This document shows, one piece after another, positions 10,391 through 31,766 of a stretch of DNA of 32,000 bases. The notes below the pieces were generated by a model. It ran no database searches and was not told the DNA's origin. It saw only the letters and a program-made list of their open reading frames with translations. The stretch is from Pseudoalteromonas translucida KMM 520. Lineage in GTDB: Bacteria; Pseudomonadota; Gammaproteobacteria; Enterobacterales; Alteromonadaceae. The stretch covers positions 810,001-842,000 of the forward strand of contig NZ_CP011034.1 in assembly GCF_001465295.1 (NCBI RefSeq), given 5' to 3'. How positions within the stretch are numbered: position 1 is the first letter of the stretch; each line of letters opens with the position of its first letter. Both the position numbers and the translations under genes were made by a program.

Positions 10391-11242
10391 ATGAAACAAT
10401 ATTTACAATTATGTCAGCGTATTGTTGATGAAGGCCAGTGGGTAGAAAACAAACGTACAGGCACACGCTGTTTAACCGTGATCAACGCCGATTTAGAATA
10501 CGATGTGGCGAATAATCAGTTTCCGATGATCACTACGCGTAAAAGCTATTACAAAGCAGCTATTGCTGAATTGCTCGGTTACTTGCGTGGTTACGATAGC
10601 GCTGCACAGTTTCGCGAAATAGGCTGTAAAACCTGGGATGCAAATGCAAACGAAAATAGCGCTTGGCTTAATAATCCGCACCGTAAAGGTGAGGACGATA
10701 TGGGCCGTGTTTATGGCGTACAAGGGCGTGCTTGGCAGCGCCCAGATGGCTCAACGCTAGACCAGCTAGCAAAAGTAATTAATAACTTAAAAAATGGTAT
10801 AGACGATCGCGGTGAAATAATTAGTTTTTACAACCCAGGCGAATTTGAGCTTGGCTGTTTACGCCCGTGTATGCACACGCACACGTTTTCATTATTAGGT
10901 GACACACTTTATTTAACGTCAATTCAGCGTAGCTGCGACGTACCGCTAGGGCTTAATTTTAATCAAATTCAGTGTTTTGTATTACTGGCATTAGTGGCGC
11001 AAATTACTGGGCATAAAGCGGGTAAGGCGTATCATAAAATAACCAACGCGCATATTTATGAAAACCAGCTTGAGCTAATGCGCGATGTGCAGTTGAAACG
11101 CGAGCCGTTTGCATCGCCGCAGTTAAAAATTAATCCAAACATTAAATCACTAAACGATATAGAAACCTGGGTAACACGCGATGACTTTGAAGTGACAGGT
11201 TATGAGTGTCACGAAGCCATTCAATACCCATTTTCGGTATAA
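10391..11242 (+). CDS. thyA: Thymidylate synthase
   Basis: 283 aa. [15 protein letters not shown]...RTGT, an active-site-like CMHTHTF region and [12 protein letters not shown] resemble ThyA. Confidence 0.93.
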
Positions 11243-11265
11243 CAAAACAGATTAAGGAAAACACC

Positions 11266-12144
11266 ATGAAAGCAGTGATCCCCGTAGCGGGCCTCGGAAC
11301 TCGCATGTTACCAGCCACCAAAGCAATTCCAAAAGAAATGCTACCGGTTGTTGACCGTCCACTAATTCAATACGTAGTTAACGAAGCCGTTGCTGCAGGT
11401 ATTAAAGAAATAGTACTGGTAACGCATTCAAGTAAAAACTCAATAGAAAACCACTTCGACACTAGTTTTGAGCTTGAAGCCACACTAGAAAAACGAGTAA
11501 AACGACAGCTACTTGCCGAAATACAGTCTATTTGTCCTAAAGATGTAACTATTATTCAAGTACGCCAAGGCGAAGCCAAAGGCCTAGGGCATGCAATTAA
11601 CTGTGCAGCGCCAATTATAGGTAACGAACCATTTGTGGTTATTTTACCCGATGTAATAATTGATGATATGGAAAGCGATCTTAGTAAAGATAACTTAGCC
11701 GAAATGATCAGCCGCTTTGAGCAAACTCAACATAGCCAAATAATGGTAGAGCCAGTACCAATGGCTGAAGTTGATCAATTTGGTGTTGTTGACTTGGGCA
11801 GTGTTGAGCTAAAACAAGGCGAAAGCTCGCCAATTCATAACATGGTAGAAAAGCCACCAGTTAACGAAGCACCATCAAACCTTGCTGTAGTAGGGCGCTA
11901 TGTATTAAGTAAAAATATTTGGCCATTACTCGCTAAAACACCGCAAGGTGCTGGTAACGAAATTCAGCTTACAGACGCTATTGCCATGCTAATGCAGCAC
12001 GAAACTGTTGATGCATACGCAATTAAAGGGCGTAGCCACGACTGTGGTAGTAAAATTGGTTATCTTAAAGCAACTATTGAGTTTGCACTACGTCGTGAAG
12101 AATTTGCTGACGAGTTAAAAACGTTTATTAAAACATTAATTTAA
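11266..12144 (+). CDS. galU: UTP-glucose-1-phosphate uridylyltransferase
   Basis: The track ORF (11206) overlaps the thyA end. The ATG at 11266 follows AAGGAAA and yields [28 protein letters not shown], the canonical GalU N-terminus. Confidence 0.93.
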
Positions 12145-12330: not shown

Positions 12331-12463
12331 TGCTTCAGTAATTATTGGTATAAAATAAACTAGGTAATATATCCAAGCACAATTAATAAAGTTAAACGCT
12401 TACTTATAAGAATGTTTAACTGAAATGTAAGTGTACTTACACTACTTTCAGGGCCGCGAATGC

Positions 12464-13141
12464 ATGTTTAAATATAAAAAAAATAATACTTTAATATTGA
12501 GTTTGCTTATACTCTTGTTTAGTACTGCTTGTGCAACTGCGCCCAACAAAACGGTATTAGTAGAGCCAATAAACGACTCGCCTGAATATGTGTCTATTAC
12601 TGCATTAGAGCTGGCGCAACTAAAAGATGCCGCAATGCAATGGCAGCAAGCCCGCTCTGGGATTGAACGACTTTTAAAGCTAGAAAAAGATATTACCTAT
12701 TTGGTAAACCATATAGATATTATAAATAGCAAAGCAATTGCGCAGTCTAGTCAAAAAGCTCGCAATCATTATAATCGCCCCACGCGCAAACAACGCTACT
12801 CGAGCACTGCTCAGCAAGCAATTAAACCAGCTTATAGTACAAAACCAACGGTAAAATTAAATACTCCAAAGCAAGTTTTTGCATTACAAGTTGCGTCGCT
12901 CGATTCCGAAAAAGACTTAGTTAAAGCATGGCAAGAACTCAATGAGCAAGCCGCGCCGTTATTTAGAGATAAAATTCGCACCAATGTTGAAACAGCAAAT
13001 GTTAATAATAAAACCTACTATCGATTAAAGTTAGGCGTGTATCAAAACTTTAAAAATGCCCAAGCCGATTGCGACGTGTTTAAACTTTATAAACTCGACT
13101 GCATAGTAAGTAACTACACAGATAAACCGGTAAAGCTGTAG
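12464..13141 (+). CDS. Lipoprotein with SPOR-like C-terminal domain (paralog A)
   Basis: The ATG at 12464 gives MFKYKKNNTLILSLLILLFSTAC, a signal peptide with a lipobox (the track GTG at 12431 is less likely). The C-terminus FALQVASLDSEKDL...NNKTYYRLKLGVYQNFKNAQADCDVFKLYKLDCIV fits a SPOR-type beta-alpha-beta-beta repeat pattern. It is clearly paralogous to 18884-19546. Confidence 0.6.
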   Translation: MFKYKKNNTLILSLLILLFSTACATAPNKTVLVEPINDSPEYVSITALELAQLKDAAMQWQQARSGIERLLKLEKDITYLVNHIDIINSKAIAQSSQKARNHYNRPTRKQRYSSTAQQAIKPAYSTKPTVKLNTPKQVFALQVASLDSEKDLVKAWQELNEQAAPLFRDKIRTNVETANVNNKTYYRLKLGVYQNFKNAQADCDVFKLYKLDCIVSNYTDKPVKL

Positions 13142-13215
13142 TTATAATTTTATTTAATTTTGTGGTATATTTTTTGCTTTATAGTTTGTAAGTAAATTAA
13201 TATGGCTGAATAAAA

Positions 13216-13803
13216 TTGAACAGACTGTTTTTAATATGTATTTTAGTTATTTTAGTTGCAGGGTGTAGTAATCAAAATACTGACGCCACACAGTTAAATG
13301 ACATAGTACGCATGGAAGAAATAAAACCTTACCTAGAACAATGGGACGCTAATAAAGATAAAATAACGCGTTTAAGCGAAATTGAAAGTGAGCTATTAAT
13401 GTTAGTTCAAGCGCTATCCCTACAAGCAGATTTAGAGACAGTACCTGAAAATATGCGTACAGGTGTTAAATTAGTTGAACATGGTACAAGTGAACAGAAT
13501 ATACAAGAAACAGCCCAAACAACTTTAACTACCCCACAGCAATCTACTTATGCCGTGAATTTAGGTAGTTACTTAAAAAAAGATTTAGCAATACTTACTT
13601 CGCAAAGGCTTCAAAAAGCATACCCTTTAATTTTTAAAGCGTTTCAATATAAAGTAAACACTCTTTCAAAGCCCAACATAGTGTTGCATCAGTTAATCGC
13701 TGGGCCATTTAATAATAAGCAAGATGCCATCATTTTTTGTCGAATCTTATCTAAAATAGACCTAGCCTGTAAGTTATCTCCTTTTGCTGGAGAAAATGTT
13801 TAA
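13216..13803 (+). CDS. Lipoprotein with divergent SPOR-like C-terminal domain (paralog B)
   Basis: A TTG start is the only one that retains the signal peptide MNRLFLICILVILVAGC (lipobox LVAGC), and the SD is weak. The C-terminus is YAVNLGSYLKKDLA...LHQLIAGPFNNKQDAIIFCRILSKIDLACKL. It shares a helical QW...RL..IE..L motif with paralogs A and D. Confidence 0.5.
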   Translation: MNRLFLICILVILVAGCSNQNTDATQLNDIVRMEEIKPYLEQWDANKDKITRLSEIESELLMLVQALSLQADLETVPENMRTGVKLVEHGTSEQNIQETAQTTLTTPQQSTYAVNLGSYLKKDLAILTSQRLQKAYPLIFKAFQYKVNTLSKPNIVLHQLIAGPFNNKQDAIIFCRILSKIDLACKLSPFAGENV

Positions 13804-13946: not shown

Positions 13947-14543
13947 ATGAATATGAAAAAATTATTAACTAAAACTACACTGGCTGCATCTGTTGCTTTA
14001 CTTGCTTTTGGTGCTTCGGCAGAAACTGCGACATTTAACGCAGGTGTAACTGTTCAAAATGCATTTACTTTTCAAAGTACTGCAGATTTAGATTTTGGTA
14101 CTATTCGTGCTACAGCAGATACAGCTACAACCGATACAGCGACGCTTGTTCTTGCAGCCAACCCTGCAACATCATCAAAAACAGCTGCTTCAGGTGCGGG
14201 CGCAGAAATTGCAGTACTTACAGCAGGTACGCCAGCTTCTTTTTCAGTGTCTGGAGTTTCTCCTTTTGCAACACTAACAATTGATGCGACAGGTGTAACG
14301 GGTGCTATTTCTCCGGTAACAGCTCCTGCAGGTACTGCAGGCTTTACACTTAGTACTCCTACTTACTACGTATTAACAGGCGCAAACCCAAATAGTGCAG
14401 CAACAACAGCTATTCAAGTTGACTCTACAGGCGCTGCTACATTTAATATGGGTGCAACATTAACTACAGATGCAACAACCCCTTCAAGTGATTACATTGA
14501 CGGCGATTACAGTGGTACATTCACATTAATATTAGATTATTAA
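13947..14543 (+). CDS. Secreted fibre (pilin-like) major subunit, DUF4402 / spore-coat-U-like
   Basis: Signal peptide KKLLTKTTLAASVALLAFGASA|E. The start may be the ATG at 13953, which lies 6 nt after AAGGA. It has an N-proximal LDFGTI motif, very high Thr/Ala/Ser/Gly content, no Cys, and a C-terminal strand DGDYSGTFTLILDY ending in Tyr. That strand resembles archaic chaperone-usher subunits. The gene lies upstream of a PapD-like chaperone. Confidence 0.6.
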   Translation: MNMKKLLTKTTLAASVALLAFGASAETATFNAGVTVQNAFTFQSTADLDFGTIRATADTATTDTATLVLAANPATSSKTAASGAGAEIAVLTAGTPASFSVSGVSPFATLTIDATGVTGAISPVTAPAGTAGFTLSTPTYYVLTGANPNSAATTAIQVDSTGAATFNMGATLTTDATTPSSDYIDGDYSGTFTLILDY

Positions 14544-14575: not shown

Positions 14576-15022
14576 GTGCTAAAACTTATTTTATTACTGA
14601 GTGCTTTTTTTTGCGTTCAGGCACTTGCTCAGGTGACCGTTCTTGAACCTCTAAACTTCGGTACGATTGTTGTCGTAAAAAATACACCTAGTAGCTCAAT
14701 CACTCTTTTACCAAGTGGCAGTAGTTCGACAACCAATATACATTTAATGCAAAGTGGACATCCTGCAGAATTGCTTTTTGAGGGATTCGGGGCACGAGTA
14801 CAATTAAACATAAGTGATACAGGTGTATATCCATCCCTTAGTAGAGTGAATGGTGGAAACGCTTTTATACTTAACAGTGTCATTTATGCTTCTTCTGTAA
14901 CAACAAACGCATATGGCATGGGGGTTTTAAAGGTTGGGGGGCAGTTAAGCACCAGTGGCGACGGGCAACCATATATAGACGATAACTACAGCACCACAAT
15001 TGAACTAACAATTTCGTATTAA
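14576..15022 (+). CDS. Secreted fibre minor subunit, DUF4402 / spore-coat-U-like
   Basis: GTG start and signal peptide MLKLILLLSAFFCVQALA|Q. It has the same N-proximal LNFGTI motif and C-terminal DDNYSTTIELTISY strand as the upstream subunit. Confidence 0.55.
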   Translation: MLKLILLLSAFFCVQALAQVTVLEPLNFGTIVVVKNTPSSSITLLPSGSSSTTNIHLMQSGHPAELLFEGFGARVQLNISDTGVYPSLSRVNGGNAFILNSVIYASSVTTNAYGMGVLKVGGQLSTSGDGQPYIDDNYSTTIELTISY

Positions 15023-15035
15023 GAGCAATTTCACA

Positions 15036-15866
15036 ATGAATTTATTTAAACTTTTTTTTATACTTGCGTGTGCCAGCCAGCTATTCATAAGCTTTAATAG
15101 CCAAGCCAATTTACTTATCTCCCCAACTCGTATTTCTTTTGATGAACGCCAACGCGTTGCCAAAGTGATCGTTATAAACAATGGCGATGAATATCAGACA
15201 TACCGTTTAGAATGGCAGGAAAAAACAGCAAAACCAGAAGGTGGATACATTACCCTAACTGATGGGCAGACACCTTCTTCATCATTGAGCAATATGGTAC
15301 GTATGAGCCCGTCACAGGTGCGCCTAGCTCCTGGTGAGCGACAAATAGTAAAGCTTGCACTTAGGAAACCTAGAGGCTTAGACGATAAAGAGTATCGTTC
15401 GCATTTATTATTTAAAGCCCTACCTAATGAAACTAAAAGTAATAAACAAGGAATGGGTATCACAATTAATATGATTTTGAGTTACTCCATACCAATTATA
15501 TTACGCCAAGGGGCTAAAATACCTGAAGTAGATATTGAATCTGTTGAAGTAATAAAAAATCAAAAAAATAGCGCATTACTTGTTTCGCTTGCGAAAACAG
15601 GAAATTATAGTGCTTTTGGTAAAGTTGAAGCTTTTTACCAAGCAAGTAATAGTAGTGAAGAAATTAAAGTGTCTATGATTAACGACTATAGTATTTACGC
15701 TGAAGTACCATTGGCTAGATTGACGTTAAGTCTATTTGAAAAAAATACAATTAAAGGGCCTGGTAAATTGCGTATCGTGTATTCCGGTTTAAAAGAATAT
15801 CAAGGTACCAAGTTTGCCGAGAAAATAGTTAATATTAATGTAGGATCATTAGGACTATTAAACTGA
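15036..15866 (+). CDS. PapD-like periplasmic pilus chaperone
   Basis: Signal peptide, then LLISPTRISFDERQRVAKVIVINNGDEYQTYRLEW. This fits the PapD_N pattern (i.PtRv.f ... v.v.N.g). MSPSQVRLAPGERQIVKL, EYRSHLLFKALP and SYSIPIILR also fit the Ig-like chaperone fold pattern. Confidence 0.62.
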   Translation: MNLFKLFFILACASQLFISFNSQANLLISPTRISFDERQRVAKVIVINNGDEYQTYRLEWQEKTAKPEGGYITLTDGQTPSSSLSNMVRMSPSQVRLAPGERQIVKLALRKPRGLDDKEYRSHLLFKALPNETKSNKQGMGITINMILSYSIPIILRQGAKIPEVDIESVEVIKNQKNSALLVSLAKTGNYSAFGKVEAFYQASNSSEEIKVSMINDYSIYAEVPLARLTLSLFEKNTIKGPGKLRIVYSGLKEYQGTKFAEKIVNINVGSLGLLN

Positions 15867-18883: not shown

Positions 18884-19546
18884 ATGCAAAATGTTAATTT
18901 TTACAAACGATTTTTAATTATAATAGTATGTATAGGCACTGCTTTTATATCGGGTTGTAGTAGTACTGAGCAAAAAGTGGAAACGTTAGATAAAGTTACT
19001 ACTCAAACCGAGGTTACTATTTCAGCTGAAGAATTAGATCAATTAAAAGCCTCGTCACAGCAGTGGCAGCAAGCTAAAGCGGGCGTAGAGCGTCTATTAA
19101 TTATAGAGCAAGACCTAAAGTTATTAATAAGCCAATTGAATGCGGTGGCACAAAGAGAATCGGCAGTAAACAGTAGCAATGTAAGTCAACCAGTAATAAC
19201 AGCAGAGGCTGAAGCTAATAAAGCAACTGCAACAGATGCAGTTGCTCCAGTGGAACAAATAGAGGAATACACGCAACCTCTTTTTTCTTTACAAGTTGCA
19301 GCGGTAACTGAACATGCGCGACTAGTTCAAAGCTTTAATGAAATAAAAGCAAATGCAGCTGAGTTATTTCACGGGGAATTTATTGCAAATGTAGAAACGA
19401 TAAAAATTAACGGTGTTACTTATTATCGTTTAAAGCTAGGTGCATACCAATATCAAAAAAATGCGAACATAGATTGCAATAAGCTTAAGCTACAGCAAGT
19501 TAATTGTATTGTTAGTCATTACACAGATCAGCCACTAAAGTTATAA
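18884..19546 (+). CDS. Lipoprotein with SPOR-like C-terminal domain (paralog D)
   Basis: AAGG SD and lipobox FISGC. SAEELDQLKASSQQWQQAKAGVERLLIIEQDLKLL parallels TALELAQLKDAAMQWQQARSGIERLLKLEKDITYL of 12464-13141. The C-terminus LFSLQVAAV...NGVTYYRLKLGAYQYQKNANIDCNKLKLQQVNCIVSHYTDQPLKL is near-collinear with paralog A. Confidence 0.6.
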   Translation: MQNVNFYKRFLIIIVCIGTAFISGCSSTEQKVETLDKVTTQTEVTISAEELDQLKASSQQWQQAKAGVERLLIIEQDLKLLISQLNAVAQRESAVNSSNVSQPVITAEAEANKATATDAVAPVEQIEEYTQPLFSLQVAAVTEHARLVQSFNEIKANAAELFHGEFIANVETIKINGVTYYRLKLGAYQYQKNANIDCNKLKLQQVNCIVSHYTDQPLKL

Positions 19547-19608
19547 ATAGATAAAGGGGCGGCACAGTACTTGCTTTATCTTTTGTATGTTTTTTGAGGA
19601 TGGCAACT

Positions 19609-20202
19609 ATGCGCCTTTTATTACCGTTATTATTAGTAAACTTAGCAGCATGTAGCTTAACACCACAGCCTGAGCCAAGTGTAAGCACAACTGCGCGTAA
19701 AGCAGCCATGGCACCTTATACGGTTAACGACTACGTAAATAACTTAACTTATCAGCTTAGTCACTTTAAAGGACCTTTAAGCGGTAATTCTCGCATTGGG
19801 GTAAGCAGCTTTTATTACGCAAACGCGCTAGATTCAAAGCTTCCCAGCGGCCAAGCTGAAGGTTTAAGCCAACAAATTCAAGAAAGCCTGCTAACGCAAT
19901 TCACTCAATTGGGATATAACACCGTTGAGTACCGTTTAAGTAATAATATAAATTTAGCATCTAACGCCGATAGCGTGCTTAGCAGAGATATAACTCAACT
20001 GCGCGAACGTCAGAATATTGACTTAATTATTACCGGCACAGTTACACGCCAGCAACACGCTTATATTGTTAATGCCCGACTGGTTAATATTAACAATAAA
20101 CACGTTTTATCAGCTGGCAGTACCGAAATCCCGATTAATGTAATGTGGGGCAGTGAAAAAGTTCAGCAACGCGATAATAACTTATATCGCAGCGAATACT
20201 AA
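19609..20202 (+). CDS. FlgO-like lipoprotein 1
   Basis: The ATG at 19609 lies 8 nt after GAGGA and gives MRLLLPLLLVNLAAC (lipobox). The core is RIGVSSFYYAN...LSQQIQESLLTQFTQLGYNTVEYRL...SVLSRD...DLIITGTVTRQQHAYIVNARLVNINNKHVLSAGSTEIP. This fits my recollection of the FlgO family pattern, whose fold may resemble CsgG/LpoB. Confidence 0.5.
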   Translation: MRLLLPLLLVNLAACSLTPQPEPSVSTTARKAAMAPYTVNDYVNNLTYQLSHFKGPLSGNSRIGVSSFYYANALDSKLPSGQAEGLSQQIQESLLTQFTQLGYNTVEYRLSNNINLASNADSVLSRDITQLRERQNIDLIITGTVTRQQHAYIVNARLVNINNKHVLSAGSTEIPINVMWGSEKVQQRDNNLYRSEY

Positions 20203-20215
20203 TTAGGAGCACAAA

Positions 20216-20908
20216 ATGAAAAAGCTATTACTTACATTATGTTTGCCATTGGGCTTTGGGTGCTCACAAATGCTAACAGGCATGAACTCAGACACCACAC
20301 AAAAAAATAAAAACAACTCAGTACAATTGGCTAATGGCGAGCGCGCAGTGGCAGCTCCAATGACCGACAACCAGGTATATCAGTCGGGGTTAATGCAACA
20401 TACTAATTATTCAAAATCGAGCACGCCATCGCGTAAAAATATTAATCATTATGTGCGTGGCATAATGCAAAATATGGTAGAAAACCTACAATATGTGAAC
20501 GAAAAAACACCACTGGCAGTTTCAAGCTTTGTGTTTTTAGATGATGATTACAACGACGCAAGTTTGTTAGGAAATCAAATTTCCGAAAGTTTCATGCATG
20601 AACTACACAGCTTTGGCATACCAGTTATCGACTTTAAAACTACCGATTATATGCGCGTAACTCCAAGCGGCGATTTTGTATTTAGCCGCGACTACCTTGA
20701 GCTCAACCAAGATCAAAACTTTAACTATGTTTTAGCCGGCACTTTAGTAAGCCATCAAGGTGGTGTGCTTGTAAATGCACGTATTATTGGCTTAGCCAGT
20801 AAAGCCGTAGTAGGAACAGCACAAGGCTTTATTCCTCAGTCAGTGGTAGATGCACTTAATAGTAGTTACAGAACCGATGGCATTATGCTTAAACAAGTAG
20901 GTAAGTGA
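20216..20908 (+). CDS. FlgO-like lipoprotein 2
   Basis: AGGAG SD and lipobox LGFGC. The core is LAVSSFVFLDD...LGNQISESFMHELHSFGIPVIDFKT...GDFVFSRD...YVLAGTLVSHQGGVLVNARIIGLASKAVVGTAQGFIP. It is paralogous to the genes on both sides. Confidence 0.5.
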   Translation: MKKLLLTLCLPLGFGCSQMLTGMNSDTTQKNKNNSVQLANGERAVAAPMTDNQVYQSGLMQHTNYSKSSTPSRKNINHYVRGIMQNMVENLQYVNEKTPLAVSSFVFLDDDYNDASLLGNQISESFMHELHSFGIPVIDFKTTDYMRVTPSGDFVFSRDYLELNQDQNFNYVLAGTLVSHQGGVLVNARIIGLASKAVVGTAQGFIPQSVVDALNSSYRTDGIMLKQVGK

Positions 20909-20915
20909 GGTAGTT

Positions 20916-21563
20916 ATGCAGCATAATTTAAATTTCATTATTATTACTTTACTATTTTTAGTTGGTTGCTCATCAAGTCGAACAGAAGTTAACCCCTCGA
21001 CTAACGATAATATAAGTTATGATTTAAATGAAATGCTTAAAGTAGTGCAAACAGAAACGGTTCATACCGAGGTTGATAGCACTCAATTTACCCCCCTTAA
21101 ACACCATAAAACTTTGGTTAATTATGTAGAGCAAATGGCGCTTGATTTAGTCGACACTCTAGAGTCTGGCAGTGAGCTTGAGGAGAGCATAAATATAGCG
21201 GTAACAAGCATAGTCGATTTAGATGCCACCTTAAATAACAGCAACCAGCTGGGTAACCAAATATCAGAAACACTCATTCATCAACTACAAAAGTTTGGTT
21301 ATGGGGTGGTTGATTTTAAAACGAGTGATGCAATAAACGTAAATCGTCGCGGCGACTTTGTTTTTTCACGAGACATAAAAAATCTCAGCAAAAAGCATAT
21401 GGCAAGCCATGTACTTGGTGGTACGTTAATATACCGCGCTAATGGCGTTACAGTGAATACCCGAGTTATAAACGTAAATAATAAAAAAGTCGTTGCCAGT
21501 AGCCGAAAATTTATACCAAGATACGTTTTAAACAAAGAAGATATCTACTTATCAAGTAATTAA
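20916..21563 (+). CDS. FlgO-like lipoprotein 3
   Basis: GAGG SD and lipobox FLVGC. The core is IAVTSIVDLD...LGNQISETLIHQLQKFGYGVVDFKT...GDFVFSRD...HVLGGTLIYRANGVTVNTRVINVNNKKVVASSRKFIP. Confidence 0.5.
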   Translation: MQHNLNFIIITLLFLVGCSSSRTEVNPSTNDNISYDLNEMLKVVQTETVHTEVDSTQFTPLKHHKTLVNYVEQMALDLVDTLESGSELEESINIAVTSIVDLDATLNNSNQLGNQISETLIHQLQKFGYGVVDFKTSDAINVNRRGDFVFSRDIKNLSKKHMASHVLGGTLIYRANGVTVNTRVINVNNKKVVASSRKFIPRYVLNKEDIYLSSN

Positions 21564-21576
21564 ACACAGTTTGCAC

Positions 21577-21606
21577 TTGATCCAAAAAAGACAATGCCGT
21601 TATAAT
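21577..21606 (+). promoter_or_regulatory. Candidate sigma70 promoter for tRNA-Arg
   Basis: TTGATC (21577-21582), an 18-nt spacer, then a perfect TATAAT (21601-21606), ending 15 nt before the tRNA 5' end. Confidence 0.4.
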
Positions 21607-21621: not shown

Positions 21622-21696
21622 GGCCTCTTAGTTAAATGGATATAACGGCCCCCTCCTAAGGGGCAGTTGCAAGTTCGATTCTTGCAGGGGCTACCA
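21622..21696 (+). tRNA. argW: tRNA-Arg (anticodon CCU), argW-like, CCA encoded
   Basis: Hand-folded cloverleaf. The acceptor is GGCCTCT/AGGGGCT (G1-U72 and U5-G68 wobble pairs). The D arm is GTTA-AATGGATA-TAAC. The anticodon arm is GCCCC-CTCCTAA-GGGGC, giving anticodon CCT. The variable loop is 4 nt, the T arm is GCAAG-TTCGATT-CTTGC, and the discriminator is A followed by CCA. It is nearly identical to E. coli argW as recalled over the D arm. Confidence 0.88.
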
Positions 21697-25487: not shown

Positions 25488-26396
25488 ATGAATATGAACT
25501 TAAAAGATTTAGAGTATGTAAAAGCCATAGCGCACTTTAAGCACTTTCGTAAAGCGGCCGATGCGTGCTTTGTAAGCCAGCCTACCTTAAGTGGCCAAGT
25601 AAAAAAACTCGAACAGGAGCTAGGTGTTACTTTATTTGACCGCTCTACTAAACAGGTAACGTTAACTGCCAAAGGCGAGCGTTTATTAACACAAATTAAT
25701 ATTATTTTAGAACAAACACAAATACTTAAAGAGCTTGCTGCTACGTCAAACGAGCCGCTACAGGGTAAGTTAACTATTGGTATTATTCCAACCATTGCGC
25801 CTTATTTACTGCCGGTATTACTCACTTCAATGAAAGAAGCGTTTATTAATAGTCGCTTTTCGTTTATTGAAATGCAAACCGCTACAATTTTAGAAGCGCT
25901 AGATAACGGCGAGCTCGACTTTGCTATTTTGGCCGATGTACCCGAGCTCAAAAAGTACCATAGGGTTAATTTATACAAAGAAGATTTTGTAGTGGCTGTA
26001 TCACACGATAATTCATTAGCTCAGCAAAAAAAAGTAGCGCTGCGCGACTTACAAGGATGCAGCCTATTAATGTTAAGTGATGGCCATTGCTTTAAAGATC
26101 AAGCCCAGCAGTTTTGTTTTTCGGCAGGAGTTAATGTGTCGAGCCAGTATCAGGGCAATAGTTTAGAAACATTACTGGCGCTGGTGGCTATGGATGACGG
26201 AGTTACATTTGTGCCTAAATTGGCATGTACTGAGCGAGTGGGGGTTAATTATTTAGCTATTTACCCTAATCAGCAGCGCAATATAGTATTTGCATCTAGA
26301 AAGCATTACCCGCATTTATCGGGGGTTGAGCAATTGGGTGAATGGTTGTCGGCTCACCCTAATTTAAAGGCTAAATTAACTAAAGTCTTGAATTAA
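25488..26396 (+). CDS. oxyR: LysR-family hydrogen-peroxide sensor OxyR
   Basis: LKDLEYVKAIAHFKHFRKAADACFVSQPTLSGQVKKLEQELGV forms the HTH. LLMLSDGHCFKDQAQQFCFSAG aligns with E. coli MLMLEDGHCLRDQAMGFCFEAG, which carries the redox cysteines C199 and C208. The start may be the ATG at 25494. Confidence 0.88.
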   Translation: MNMNLKDLEYVKAIAHFKHFRKAADACFVSQPTLSGQVKKLEQELGVTLFDRSTKQVTLTAKGERLLTQINIILEQTQILKELAATSNEPLQGKLTIGIIPTIAPYLLPVLLTSMKEAFINSRFSFIEMQTATILEALDNGELDFAILADVPELKKYHRVNLYKEDFVVAVSHDNSLAQQKKVALRDLQGCSLLMLSDGHCFKDQAQQFCFSAGVNVSSQYQGNSLETLLALVAMDDGVTFVPKLACTERVGVNYLAIYPNQQRNIVFASRKHYPHLSGVEQLGEWLSAHPNLKAKLTKVLN

Positions 26397-27586
26397 AGGT
26401 TTTGGCTAACTATTTCGACTATATCGTTAATTTGCACGCCCGGAAGTGGTGCATTATTAATGCTTACCGCAATGGCGCTTTGTTGATACAACTGCTCAAC
26501 ACGAATGCTATTAAGGGTAATCACTTTATGTGGCATAGTATTGCCTAAAGCGTCTGTTAGGTAGTTGTGGTGTGCAATGCTAAGTAGTTGGCCTTTTTTA
26601 AGGCCATGCGCTTTACCTAAGTTAATCACTATGTTGCCCTGATCAAGGTGCATAATTTTTCCTTGAGTAGGCAAGCAGGCCATAGCTGATTGTAAATCGT
26701 AACTTAGCGTTTGGTTTATATCGTTTATGCTTTGCCCATAGGGCGATTGCCAAAACATACTACTGTTAACATCAACAATTGCGGTTTTTTCAAATGGCCA
26801 AATAGCTTGATTTTGATAGCTATTTTGCCAAAGCTGCTCATAAGTTGTGCCATCAAAAAGGGTAAACTCTATTTGGTAACTACGTTGATAGCTTTCGTCT
26901 TGCCAAAAGGCATAGTCGCTATTGAGCTTGTCGCTAGTTGATAGATTGGTTATTTGGCTTAATAAAACGTACTGCGCGTTACTGCGCGAAGAAATATCTT
27001 CTAATTGCGCATTAGAGTAGTCGTGTTGCTGCGAAAAATACTTATCGACCTTTATTGCGTTGTTGTAATAAGCAATTGGTACTGCGCTCATTTTTGACTT
27101 TTGCAATGCGGTATAAATATTTTTGCTAACGGCTTTATCTATGTCAAATATTTGACCCATGCGGGCTTGTTCACGATGATTAAGCTGGCTTTGGGTAACG
27201 GCCACAAACTTTTTAAAACTACTTTGTGGGCATTGCTCTGTTTGTGCAAAAATATCTAAGCGCAGTGTAATAGCTAGCTGATTATTATGACGCTCTTCGC
27301 TCACAAGCTCTATTTTTTGAATTTCGCCATGGCTGCTTATTTTAAGCTGATCTTGCATTAGCACGCCGTCTACTAAGGTTTGTACCGAGCTTACCCGCGC
27401 ACCAGAGAACACTAACGCTTGTGTAATGGCATCTTTAATTGCTGCAGATTTAGCTGCGCCTACATCGCTACTTTTAACTTGTGCATGGCCGGTCGACTCA
27501 TACCACTGCGCTGCAGTAAAAGGCGAAAACGTTAATAAAGCAGTTGCGCTTAGCCCTGCAAATACCGATGATAAAAACGAATTCAT
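26393..27586 (-). CDS. flgT: Flagellar H-ring-associated periplasmic protein FlgT-like
   Basis: 397 aa with a signal peptide ending FTAAQ|WYESTGHAQV. Length, the N-terminal pattern (AQWYE.TG.A), and a position divergent from flgP and next to flgNMA all match Vibrio flgT as I remember it. The assignment rests largely on synteny. Confidence 0.6.
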   Translation of the reverse strand: MNSFLSSVFAGLSATALLTFSPFTAAQWYESTGHAQVKSSDVGAAKSAAIKDAITQALVFSGARVSSVQTLVDGVLMQDQLKISSHGEIQKIELVSEERHNNQLAITLRLDIFAQTEQCPQSSFKKFVAVTQSQLNHREQARMGQIFDIDKAVSKNIYTALQKSKMSAVPIAYYNNAIKVDKYFSQQHDYSNAQLEDISSRSNAQYVLLSQITNLSTSDKLNSDYAFWQDESYQRSYQIEFTLFDGTTYEQLWQNSYQNQAIWPFEKTAIVDVNSSMFWQSPYGQSINDINQTLSYDLQSAMACLPTQGKIMHLDQGNIVINLGKAHGLKKGQLLSIAHHNYLTDALGNTMPHKVITLNSIRVEQLYQQSAIAVSINNAPLPGVQINDIVEIVSQNL

Positions 27587-27680: not shown

Positions 27681-27696
27681 TGGCATTAAACCTGCA
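27681..27696 (+). promoter_or_regulatory. Sigma54 (-24/-12) promoter for flgP
   Basis: TGGCATTAAACCTGCA has correctly spaced GG and GC elements and lies about 45 nt upstream of the flgP ATG. Confidence 0.55.
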
Positions 27697-27741: not shown

Positions 27742-28200
27742 ATGCGAGTAATGCCATTACTTATCACGTTAGGATGCATAACTTTAAGCGGTTGTAGCAA
27801 TATGTTTGATAAGCACGTTGAATACAAATATGTAGAGCCAAACAACTACCCGGTATTAAAAGCCGTGGGTTATGCACCTATTAGCCTGCAGTCGGGTGTA
27901 AATAAGTCGCAAAAGCAGCTAATGGCTATTAAGGCTTCTAAGCTAGAAGCTTACCGAGAGCTTGCAGAGCAAGTGTATGGGCAACAAATTACCGCAGGTA
28001 CTACAGTTGCAGGTTCAATAGCACAAGACGATTACCTACAAAGCAAAGTGCAGGGCATTATTAAAGGCGCACAAGTTATAAAAGCCTACGCGGTAGACGA
28101 CACCTATATAACTGAGCTTGAACTAAACATGAAGCGCGTACACGACCTGTACATAGGCGAAATTAAACCCCGAGAAGTTAAAAAAGTAACTTATTATTAG
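27742..28200 (+). CDS. flgP: Flagellar lipoprotein FlgP (LPP20 family)
   Basis: 152 aa with lipobox TLSGC. LKAVGYAP......Q..LMAIKASKLEAYRELAEQVYG fits the LPP20/FlgP pattern. It is divergent from flgT, as in Vibrio. Confidence 0.7.
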   Translation: MRVMPLLITLGCITLSGCSNMFDKHVEYKYVEPNNYPVLKAVGYAPISLQSGVNKSQKQLMAIKASKLEAYRELAEQVYGQQITAGTTVAGSIAQDDYLQSKVQGIIKGAQVIKAYAVDDTYITELELNMKRVHDLYIGEIKPREVKKVTYY

Positions 28201-30936: not shown

Positions 30937-31766
30937 TTGAATAGTAAAGATTTACAGCAAAGTGAATACGATCAATTTCGCTTATTTTTAGAACAACAGT
31001 GCGGTATTGTATTGGGCGAAAACAAACAATACTTGGTTAAAAGCCGTTTAGCACCGTTAATGAAGCGATTTAATGTTGAGTCTTTGTCACAGCTAGTAAA
31101 TAAAACGTTGGGATTGCATGAGCGCCAATTACGCGCCGCAGTGGTTGATGCAATGACCACCAATGAAACCCTATGGTTTAGAGATCAATATCCGTTTGAG
31201 TTATTAAAAACTAAACTGTTTCCAGAGTTTAAAGGGCTTAACAGACCATTAAAAATATGGTCTGCGGCAAGTTCTTCTGGGCAAGAGCCATACTCTATTG
31301 CTATGTCGGTTGCTGAGTTTCAGGCAAGTTCTCCTGGGGTTTTACGCAGGGAGCGCAAATAGTGGCTACCGATATATCAAATACTATGCTGGATATGTGT
31401 AAACACGCAGAGTATGACGCGTTAGCACTAGCAAGAGGGCTCTCGGCCGAACGTCGTAAAAAGTTTTTTAAAGACAGCGGCAATGGCATGGCTCAAGTTA
31501 TCGACCCAATAAAAAAACAGGTTAACTTTAGACATCTTAATTTACTCGACTCATACGCGCTTATGGGCAAGTTTGATATTATATTTTGCCGCAATGTGTT
31601 GATTTACTTTGCACCAGAAGTAAAAGCAAAAATTATTGCGCAATTTTCTCAAGCACTTAATCCTAAAGGTTATTTACTTTTAGGGGCGTCGGAATCTATG
31701 AGCGGTTTAAGTAACGATTTTGATATGGTTAGATGTAACCCTGGTATTATTTATCAAAAGAAATAA
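30937..31766 (+). pseudogene. cheR: Chemotaxis methyltransferase CheR, interrupted by a 1-nt frameshift (as sequenced)
   Basis: The ORFs 30937-31362 (TTG start, CheR N-domain and SAM motif IWSAASSSGQEPYSIAM) and 31362-31766 (VATDIS...FCRNVLIYF...LLLGASE) are consecutive halves of one CheR in adjacent frames. Adding one G to the GGG run at 31349-31351 would read ...GVLRRGAQIVATDIS... and give about 276 aa. Confidence 0.8.

Follow-up and report, generated by a model that had tools for sequence, protein, structure and literature searches.

The window analyzed here is a stretch of 32,000 nucleotides from Pseudoalteromonas translucida KMM 520 (contig NZ_CP011034.1, positions 810,001 to 842,000 of the forward strand); all coordinates are counted from its first letter. 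It contains three consecutive genes, designated O1, O2 and O3, which encode lipoproteins of the FlgO family. In Vibrio, FlgO is a component of the H-ring of the polar flagellar motor. The trio stands between a pilus-type locus and a group of flagellar genes that includes the H-ring genes flgT and flgP (Table 1). The initial annotation regarded the three genes as a tandem triplication attached to the pilus-type operon rather than to the flagellar genes, and offered two explanations, namely that one copy is a displaced flagellar flgO or that the family has been recruited by a non-flagellar machine of the envelope.

O1, O2 and O3 are separated by gaps of 13 nt (O1-O2) and 7 nt (O2-O3), and each gap contains an AGGAG or GAGG Shine-Dalgarno sequence, which confirms the spacing and the ribosome-binding sites annotated initially. 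The lipoboxes, read directly from the sequence, are LAAC in O1, GFGC in O2 and LVGC in O3, again as described; the sorting residue at position +2, read in the same way, is serine in all three proteins and aspartate in none. Serine at +2 is the usual outer-membrane sorting signal of lipoproteins. The proposed collinear core is visible in the alignment, where LGNQISE, V(I/V)DFKT, GDFVFSRD and VNA/TR are common to the three proteins, and O2 and O3 are indeed the closest pair, with ~34-35% identity versus 26-34% for O1 to either. Outside the core the proteins differ. The linker that follows the lipid anchor comprises ~22 residues in O1, ~59 in O2 and ~48 in O3. At the C-terminus, O1 has the tail W..KVQ.RD..LYR.EY and O2 the tail ..DGIMLK, which aligns with ..DGVLIR of Vibrio cholerae FlgO; O3 ends early and has neither the DG tail nor the tail of O1.

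Profile searches bear out the membership in the FlgO family that had been suggested initially. The scores of O1, O2 and O3 against the Pfam FlgO model (PF17680; gathering cut-off 22.6 bits) were 118.3 bits (E 2.7e-34), 148.9 bits (E 8.9e-44) and 146.5 bits (E 5e-43), respectively, with matches extending from profile positions 1-6 to 129 out of 130. No NCBIfam model matches any of the three. V. cholerae FlgO, as present in the in-situ H-ring structures of the PDB entries 9YDS and 9YFG, was matched by O1 with E 5.7e-12, by O2 with E 1.6e-35 and by O3 with E 3.6e-29, and the alignment of O2 to FlgO of 9YDS extends into the C-terminal tail. Over the domain, O2 and O3 are 38-51% identical to the H-ring FlgO and O1 is 25-30% identical. 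The closest cluster to O2, at 97% identity, contains CAI85838 of strain TAC125.

The fold comparison with CsgG, LpoB and TolB-N that the initial annotation recommended was made with an AlphaFold2 (AF2) model of O1 (predicted local distance difference test, pLDDT, 76). Foldseek assigned the model to the TolB-N/LpoB/PelC/CsgG class, and no 9YDS or 9YFG chain is among its listed matches. O1 also passes the cut-off of the Pfam LptE model, marginally (25.9 bits versus 23). This class is common to LpoB, TolB-N and LptE, which raises the alternative that the trio maintains peptidoglycan or the outer membrane in the manner of one of these proteins and owes its position to historical accident. The trio of Thalassotalea, which stands alone amid housekeeping genes, would fit such a role, and so would the size of the family: a profile search of 1.8 billion representatives returned 1764 FlgO-family clusters at 50% identity, suggesting roles beyond motors of the Vibrio type. 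However, the likeness to LpoB, TolB-N and LptE is confined to the fold, scores with the FlgO model are five- to sixfold higher, and the trio has neither a TolB beta-propeller nor an LptD partner gene. O2 and O3 are far closer to the H-ring FlgO than to any LpoB, TolB or LptE. Moreover, the conserved sigma-54 promoter described below is atypical for housekeeping envelope genes, and FlgO-family candidates follow H-ring genomes in the tables of Kaplan et al. A general envelope role is therefore very unlikely in our estimate.

The three copies stand in tandem as annotated, but they are not of recent origin. We rejected a recent tandem duplication because the three paralogues share 26-35% identity and other genera have orthologues of each one. 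Across five loci, identity between orthologues was 30-66% for O1, 48-71% for O2 and 35-50% for O3, while identity between paralogues was 21-48%. In a neighbour-joining tree that included Vibrio-type FlgO, which the initial annotation had called for, the O1 group separated in 100 of 100 bootstraps. Among the best 150 of the 1764 FlgO clusters, 68 were O2-like, 75 O3-like, 3 O1-like and 4 Vibrio-like.

The trio is also conserved as a set. Searches for related loci were made with O2 alignments; of 80 species-level genome loci, 74 showed the complete trio. O2 comes immediately after O1 in 144 of 145 cases. O3 is less fixed and lies after O2, before O1 (in Thalassotalea and in loci L111, L125 and L132) or across the chaperone-usher locus. 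O1 and O2 are thus an invariant pair, and O3 is a mobile third member. A locus of Bowmanella (L083, 9372-13553) has four FlgO-family genes, O1 and O2 followed by a pair of an O2-like and an O3-like gene; the two pairs are split by an unrelated open reading frame (ORF) of 228 aa and a SPOR gene, with an inverted usher locus alongside. Two loci with unexpected labels, one from a 'Phenylobacterium' metagenome-assembled genome (MAG; L073) and one from 'Flavobacterium sp. W21' (L075), carry O1, O2 and O3 genes of the Alteromonadales type at 50-69% identity, and these are probably mis-binned or contaminant contigs.

A sigma-54-type promoter motif precedes the trio. The only exact match to GGCAC-N5-TTGCW in the window is at 19561-19575, within the 16-nt scored site 19560-19575, and this site ahead of O1 had the top score in a weighted scan of the window. 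It is followed in rank by the sites between flgT and flgP, each directed at one of the two genes, with the flgT site second; further sites are found 5' of flgA and of the first gene of the usher unit. Conservation was counted in the first 84 fetched loci (four gene contexts plus a genome scan), with a site scored as present at a score of at least 17.5 within 170 nt upstream. By this measure, a site precedes O1 in 78 of 81 loci, flgT in 38 of 42, flgP in 40 of 42 and flgA in 30 of 31. For nine control genes (thyA, lgt, tauE, the NTP-transferase gene, oxyR, O2, O3, DUF4402a and PapD) the frequency was 0-5% in seven and 7-9% in two, and 5.5% of random 200-nt windows had a site. O3 carries a site of its own where it stands first or alone. 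We predict from these motifs that the trio is its own transcription unit, a sigma-54-driven operon. Class III FlrBC promoters are sigma-54-dependent. The flgO promoter of V. cholerae, flgOp, is of this class, and the FlrBC regulon of that species includes flgOP and flgT (PMC12607845).

The Vibrio-type position of flgO is empty, as the initial annotation implied. In the window, the 155 bp between flgT and flgP contain no flgO, and tblastn maps revealed no FlgO-family match between flgT and flgP in any locus showing both. The distance from O3 to flgT is below 1 kb in 23 species, where O3 is on the far side from flgP, and 1-8.4 kb in 20 more. In comparisons with Vibrio proteins, O2 scored 126 bits over 154 aa against FlgO, the FlgP of the window 83 bits over 112 aa against that of V. 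cholerae, and the FlgT of the window 139-150 bits over ~380 aa. O2 and O3 are as similar to Vibrio FlgO as the FlgP of the window is to Vibrio FlgP, a degree of divergence compatible with orthology.

The published distribution of FlgO candidates agrees with this layout. Kaplan et al. (2019, Table 4) list PSHAa0755, the best FlgO homologue of P. haloplanktis, as the FlgO candidate, together with PSHAa0761 as flgT and PSHAa0762 as flgP; by synteny O2 is the ortholog of PSHAa0755, and the gene count matches exactly. The same study places flgT and flgP consecutively, with the FlgO candidate elsewhere, in Pseudoalteromonas (including P. tunicata), Idiomarina, Alteromonas and Paraglaciecola, and reports the order flgT-flgO-flgP in Vibrio, Photobacterium, Shewanella and Colwellia psychrerythraea. 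FlgO candidates follow Na+/H-ring genomes in its tables: none occurs in the 6 single-stator species tabulated, and Chromohalobacter is the one exception among 13 dual-H+-stator species. We searched with the O2 of a Colwellia sp. (C1TZA3) for the trio in C. psychrerythraea, which has a syntenic flgO, and the best 120 matches included none from that species.

The closest characterized system is the FlgO of V. cholerae and V. alginolyticus (VC2207; 9YDS, 9YFG). It belongs to the same Pfam family, is N-terminally lipidated and located in the outer membrane, is expressed from a sigma-54 class III-type promoter with flgT and flgP nearby, and shares the C-terminal DG(I/V) tail with O2. It differs in being a single gene between flgT and flgP that is co-transcribed with flgP, whereas three paralogues form their own operon here; its linker comprises a few residues in V. 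cholerae, compared with 48-59 in O2 and O3; and O1 is more distant from it, with another tail (related RD..LYR), and the tree singles out none of the paralogues as its one-to-one ortholog. V. cholerae FlgO is lipidated at Cys16 and assembles into a C58 ring immediately outside that of FlgP; its C-terminal loop and second beta-sheet are reported to contact FlgP, and the H-ring has two further peripheral ring densities without an assigned protein (preprint 10.64898/2025.12.02.691832).

We give about even odds to the reading that the trio supplies the FlgO of the polar-motor H-ring. It is favoured by the similarity to the solved FlgO, the flgO-free flgT-flgP intervals and the common promoter type, and also by the position at the edge of the flagellar cluster and the presence of FlgO-family genes tracking H-ring genomes in published tables. 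Of the two explanations offered initially, we thus prefer the displaced flagellar flgO, extended to all three genes as an old set in place of one displaced copy with two extras. The trio would serve in this way in Pseudoalteromonas and in related Alteromonadales that have flgT beside flgP and no flgO between them. O2 would be the likeliest to form the FlgP-facing ring, because it has the DG(I/V) tail by which V. cholerae FlgO contacts FlgP; O1 and O3 would form additional rings or alternate within rings. Ring assembly, contact with FlgP and a role in motility are predictions; observed directly are the family membership, the lipoprotein signals, the trio's own conserved promoter motif, its conservation as a set and its separability from the usher locus.

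The pilus-type locus upstream of the trio has to be considered alongside this reading. Its central product is a 996-aa protein that the Pfam Usher models miss. Foldseek searches with an AF2 model of this protein (pLDDT 84) gave the FimD and PapC ushers as top matches (E 1.8e-26, ~920 aligned columns), which upholds the view that the upstream genes encode a pilus-type machine. The model comprises an N-terminal domain, a large beta-barrel with a plug, immunoglobulin (Ig)-like domains and a C-terminal beta-alpha-beta-beta-alpha-beta domain, and the pattern of this last element, by eye, reads as SPOR-like; a C-terminal SPOR domain was found by Pfam in the usher homologues of the Colwellia sp. and Psychrosphaera loci. 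We rejected the identity of an SdrD/MSCRAMM-type adhesin, given that one Ig-like domain alone gives that match and the whole fold is that of an usher; in databases the protein bears the names 'carboxypeptidase-like regulatory domain', 'MSCRAMM family' and 'SdrD B-like'. Both DUF4402 proteins carry a signal peptide, and their C-termini are ..LDY and ..ISY. Neither the usher nor the DUF4402 protein has a PDB match at the sequence level.

Like FimD/PapC with PapD/FimC, the locus has a full usher fold, a PapD_N chaperone gene directly upstream of it and two secreted subunit genes before that. Unlike FimD, the 996-aa usher is only ~11-12% identical to it. In contrast to classical chaperone-usher pili, the subunits are DUF4402 rather than Fimbrial or SCPU proteins, the usher has extra C-terminal Ig-like and SPOR-like domains, SPOR lipoproteins flank the genes, and the promoter is of the sigma-54 type. 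Judged from the model, the upstream locus is a real, very divergent chaperone-usher system. Literature searches on DUF4402 and on chaperone-usher combined with SPOR domain yielded no description of this usher system. The chaperone-usher genes are flanked by three paralogous lipoproteins that have an N-terminal motif in common and carry a SPOR or SPOR-like domain at the C-terminus; an orthologue of the 195-aa SPOR-like one, in locus L004, matches SPOR weakly. In other genera, a similar sigma-54-type site, TGGTTTACTTTTTGCA, lies 5' of the first chaperone gene. Homologues of the 996-aa usher extend to Marinomonas, Desulfobacterales and Rhodospirillales. In Psychrosphaera (L079, 4812-9123) and Catenovulum (L088, 109-5737), genes for an HD-GYP-type response regulator and a large hybrid histidine kinase adjoin the locus, and this pair may regulate the chaperone-usher genes, possibly in connection with cyclic di-GMP (c-di-GMP).

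Several observations weigh against the H-ring reading. In the window, the trio ends 4.8 kb from flgT and flgP starts 6.2 kb past O3, consistent with the 6-8 kb annotated, and outside Pseudoalteromonas, among 35 metagenome contigs in which the flank was at least 5 kb, only 2 had flagellar genes adjacent to FlgO genes. By comparison, 24 of these 35 contigs had the usher locus next to the FlgO genes or amid them. An adjacency that is kept through rearrangements is not accounted for by a flagellar function, and such a pattern usually signals a functional link. Promoter type, which we tried as a discriminator between a flagellar and a pilus role and rejected, cannot separate the two, because the usher unit also has sigma-54-type sites (28 of 32 loci for its first gene). 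In the tree, O2, O3 and Vibrio-type FlgO split three ways, with 27, 16 and 9 of 100 bootstraps for the three pairings. Only flgP has been deleted in a Pseudoalteromonas, where swimming was reduced (PMC10634453). Finally, the H-ring reading gives no reason for three paralogues.

The same adjacency suggests that the trio could be an accessory module of the chaperone-usher pilus, forming a periplasmic ring or collar around the SPOR-bearing usher that helps subunit delivery, usher placement or anchoring, as PelC does with PelB or CsgG in curli. The thyA-O1 interval contains the usher locus in 39 of 71 loci, and the locus also adjoins or separates FlgO genes in Bowmanella, Psychrosphaera, Paraglaciecola and a Colwellia sp., as well as in 12 of the 18 metagenome contigs with both flanks. 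The adjacency persists in at least five gene orders, for example O1 O2 > usher locus > < O3, and both units have sigma-54-type sites. At the level of structure, the O1 model matches, besides TolB-N and LpoB, the ring-forming secretion lipoproteins PelC, which forms a dodecameric ring round the PelB barrel, and CsgG, the curli channel (Foldseek E 1e-4 to 1e-3 for the small alpha/beta fold). These are likewise outer-membrane lipoproteins encoded beside an export barrel for a fibre or polymer, as the trio is beside the usher. O1 passes the LptE cut-off as well, and LptE is a lipoprotein inside the LptD barrel. However, PelC and CsgG have no sequence-level similarity to the trio, so that the likeness concerns a possible working mode and not family membership; moreover, CsgG forms a membrane pore and V. 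cholerae FlgO forms none (preprint 10.64898/2025.12.02.691832).

The distribution of the two units argues against such a dependence. An usher locus of the same composition has no FlgO gene within 10 kb in Desulfobacter, Marinomonas, Thalassomonas and Catenovulum, that is, in all four genera sampled via the usher. Conversely, the usher locus is absent from the thyA-O1 interval in 32 of the 71 loci, and P. distincta is polymorphic for it. No interruption of the O1-O3 ORFs was seen in any of the 27 Pseudoalteromonas species that lack the usher locus at the site, where the promoter is intact too, or in any of the 39 with it; the trio also occurs without usher genes nearby in Algicola, two Alteromonadales MAGs and Thalassotalea. 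The two units therefore do not co-occur obligately. Part of the adjacency, perhaps much of it, may reflect synteny kept by descent, because the distant contigs L096 and L147 have the same thyA-NTP-transferase flank. SPOR-lipoprotein genes stay beside O1 in many species that lost the usher core.

The predicted promoter may point in the same direction. The trio and the preceding SPOR lipoprotein gene lie on the same strand with a gap of 62 nt and no terminator-like site in it, but this gap contains the conserved sigma-54-type site of the trio, and elsewhere the trio and the usher locus are arranged convergently or divergently. Since the trio has its own predicted promoter, we rejected co-transcription with the usher as its sole mode of expression; by design, it would not be a co-transcribed part of the pilus unit. 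It follows from the two-way separability that the function of the trio needs no pilus and the pilus needs no trio. We regard the chaperone-usher locus as an accessory unit in its own right, frequently found with the trio but not needed by it. An exclusive role of the trio in the pilus is thus unlikely in our assessment. As for the attachment to the pilus operon proposed initially, the adjacency recurs in other genera and in most of the metagenome contigs, but the attachment itself does not hold, considering the promoter of O1, the loci that have no usher genes and the 23 species in which the trio is within 1 kb of flgT-flgP.

The trio may also bridge the two machines, as a polar outer-membrane ring platform that serves the motor and positions or regulates the pilus where one is present, thereby coupling motility and attachment under one sigma-54 programme. 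It stands between flagellar genes and the usher locus in Pseudoalteromonas (usher locus > O1 O2 O3 > < flgT flgP >) and, in a second, unrelated arrangement, in the metagenome contigs L132 and L133 (flgP < flgT > O3 O1 O2 > < usher locus). All three groups of genes have sigma-54-type sites, with the trio as core and the usher locus as accessory, and the SPOR domains of the usher and of the three flanking lipoproteins would fit targeting to peptidoglycan at the septum or the poles, as judged from the known role of SPOR. Nevertheless, this bridging role is read from gene order only, is less parsimonious than either single role and has to accommodate the four genera in which the usher locus lacks nearby FlgO genes; we consider it quite unlikely.

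A related view is that the conserved O1-O2(+O3) set of Alteromonadales forms a ring platform at the periplasmic side of the outer membrane that is shared by, or first evolved for, the sigma-54-dependent chaperone-usher pilus, whose usher would bind peptidoglycan through its SPOR domain, so that FlgO would not be only flagellar. We put this forward as a tentative possibility. If it is true, the platform would act in the manner of PelC or CsgG and couple pilus assembly to the polar motor physically or through regulation, and it would hint at the origin of the Vibrio H-ring protein.

The 5' part of the window contains, in order, the end of relA, mazG, pyrG, eno, mutH (minus strand), rppH, ptsP, tauE, lgt, thyA and the NTP-transferase gene. 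These are followed by a SPOR lipoprotein gene, a SPOR-like lipoprotein gene, two DUF4402 genes and the genes for the PapD-like chaperone, the 996-aa protein and a further SPOR lipoprotein, and then by O1, O2, O3 and tRNA-Arg(CCU). Beyond the tRNA gene lie a DHH-like gene, a disulfide oxidoreductase gene and a Prx-Grx hybrid gene, all on the minus strand, and oxyR on the plus strand; the 3' part consists, in order, of flgT (minus strand), flgP (plus strand), flgN, flgM, flgA, cheV and cheR.

Table 1. Features of the trio and its surroundings, with positions in the window, strand, and supporting evidence or remarks.
Feature	Position	Strand	Evidence or remark
SPOR-domain lipoprotein, first of three paralogous SPOR lipoproteins	12431-13141	+	Pfam SPOR, E 7e-9
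Sigma-54-type site TGGTATattttTTGCT, 5' of first chaperone-usher unit gene	13163-13178	+	Window scan
SPOR-like lipoprotein paralogue, 195 aa, first chaperone-usher unit gene	13216-13803	+	Lipobox LVAGC
Two DUF4402 secreted subunits, presumed fibre subunits	13947-14543 and 14576-15022	+	Pfam DUF4402
PapD-like periplasmic chaperone	15036-15866	+	Pfam PapD_N, E 1.1e-7, 32 bits versus cut-off 23
Divergent usher, 996 aa	15875-18865	+	AF2 model and Foldseek
SPOR-domain outer-membrane lipoprotein between usher gene and O1	18884-19546	+	Pfam SPOR; lipobox ISGC
Predicted sigma-54-type promoter CGGCACagtacTTGCT, GG-N10-GC	19560-19575	+	33 nt 5' of O1 start codon
O1, FlgO-family outer-membrane lipoprotein, 197 aa	19609-20202	+	Pfam FlgO
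O2, FlgO-family lipoprotein, 230 aa	20216-20908	+	Pfam FlgO
O3, FlgO-family lipoprotein, 215 aa	20916-21563	+	Pfam FlgO
Sigma-70-like promoter ahead of tRNA-Arg(CCU)	21577-21606		
tRNA-Arg(CCU), downstream end of FlgO operon	21622-21696	+	ARAGORN and Rfam (61.9 bits)
flgT (H-ring)	26393-27586	-	Sigma-54-type site 27645-27630, minus strand
flgP (H-ring lipoprotein)	27742-28200	+	Pfam LPP20; sigma-54-type site 27681-27696

The 4.7 kb from tRNA-Arg(CCU) to flgT, with the DHH-like, disulfide oxidoreductase, Prx-Grx hybrid and oxyR genes, constitute a variable insert, because they are missing in the 23 species where O3 abuts flgT. Two further features of the window concern gene models. cheR (30937-31766) consists of two ORFs with a one-base overlap, 30937-31362, which encodes CheR_N and the start of the SAM domain, and 31362-31766, which encodes the remainder; the cheR of P. 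luteoviolacea is one ORF of 284 aa. The split is either a frameshift pseudogene or a sequencing error. The NTP-transferase ORF as listed (11206-12144) opens at a GTG within the end of thyA, and its true start is probably near 11260, because relatives encode 292-293 aa.

The FlgO family, its fold and the status of O2 as a FlgO candidate are already known. Our literature searches on PSHAa0752-0756 and on FlgO with Pseudoalteromonas revealed nothing on the trio beyond the table of Kaplan et al. In the literature searched, we also found no description of a three-paralogue operon with its own sigma-54-type promoter that replaces the syntenic flgO in a large group of marine bacteria, or of a recurrent adjacency between a FlgO trio and a chaperone-usher system with a SPOR-like usher.

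The H-ring is at present described from Vibrio, with one FlgO ring and two outer densities that have no assigned protein. Here, a widespread marine group with the same accessories of the Na+ motor (FlgT, FlgP, MotX and MotY) carries three old FlgO paralogues. If the trio does supply the FlgO of that ring, comparative tables with a single 'FlgO candidate' need correction. Additionally, the repeated placement of FlgO genes beside usher genes suggests a possible link between the machines of motility and attachment. Should the trio build the distal H-ring, a multi-ring or mixed-subunit disk would be predicted for these bacteria.

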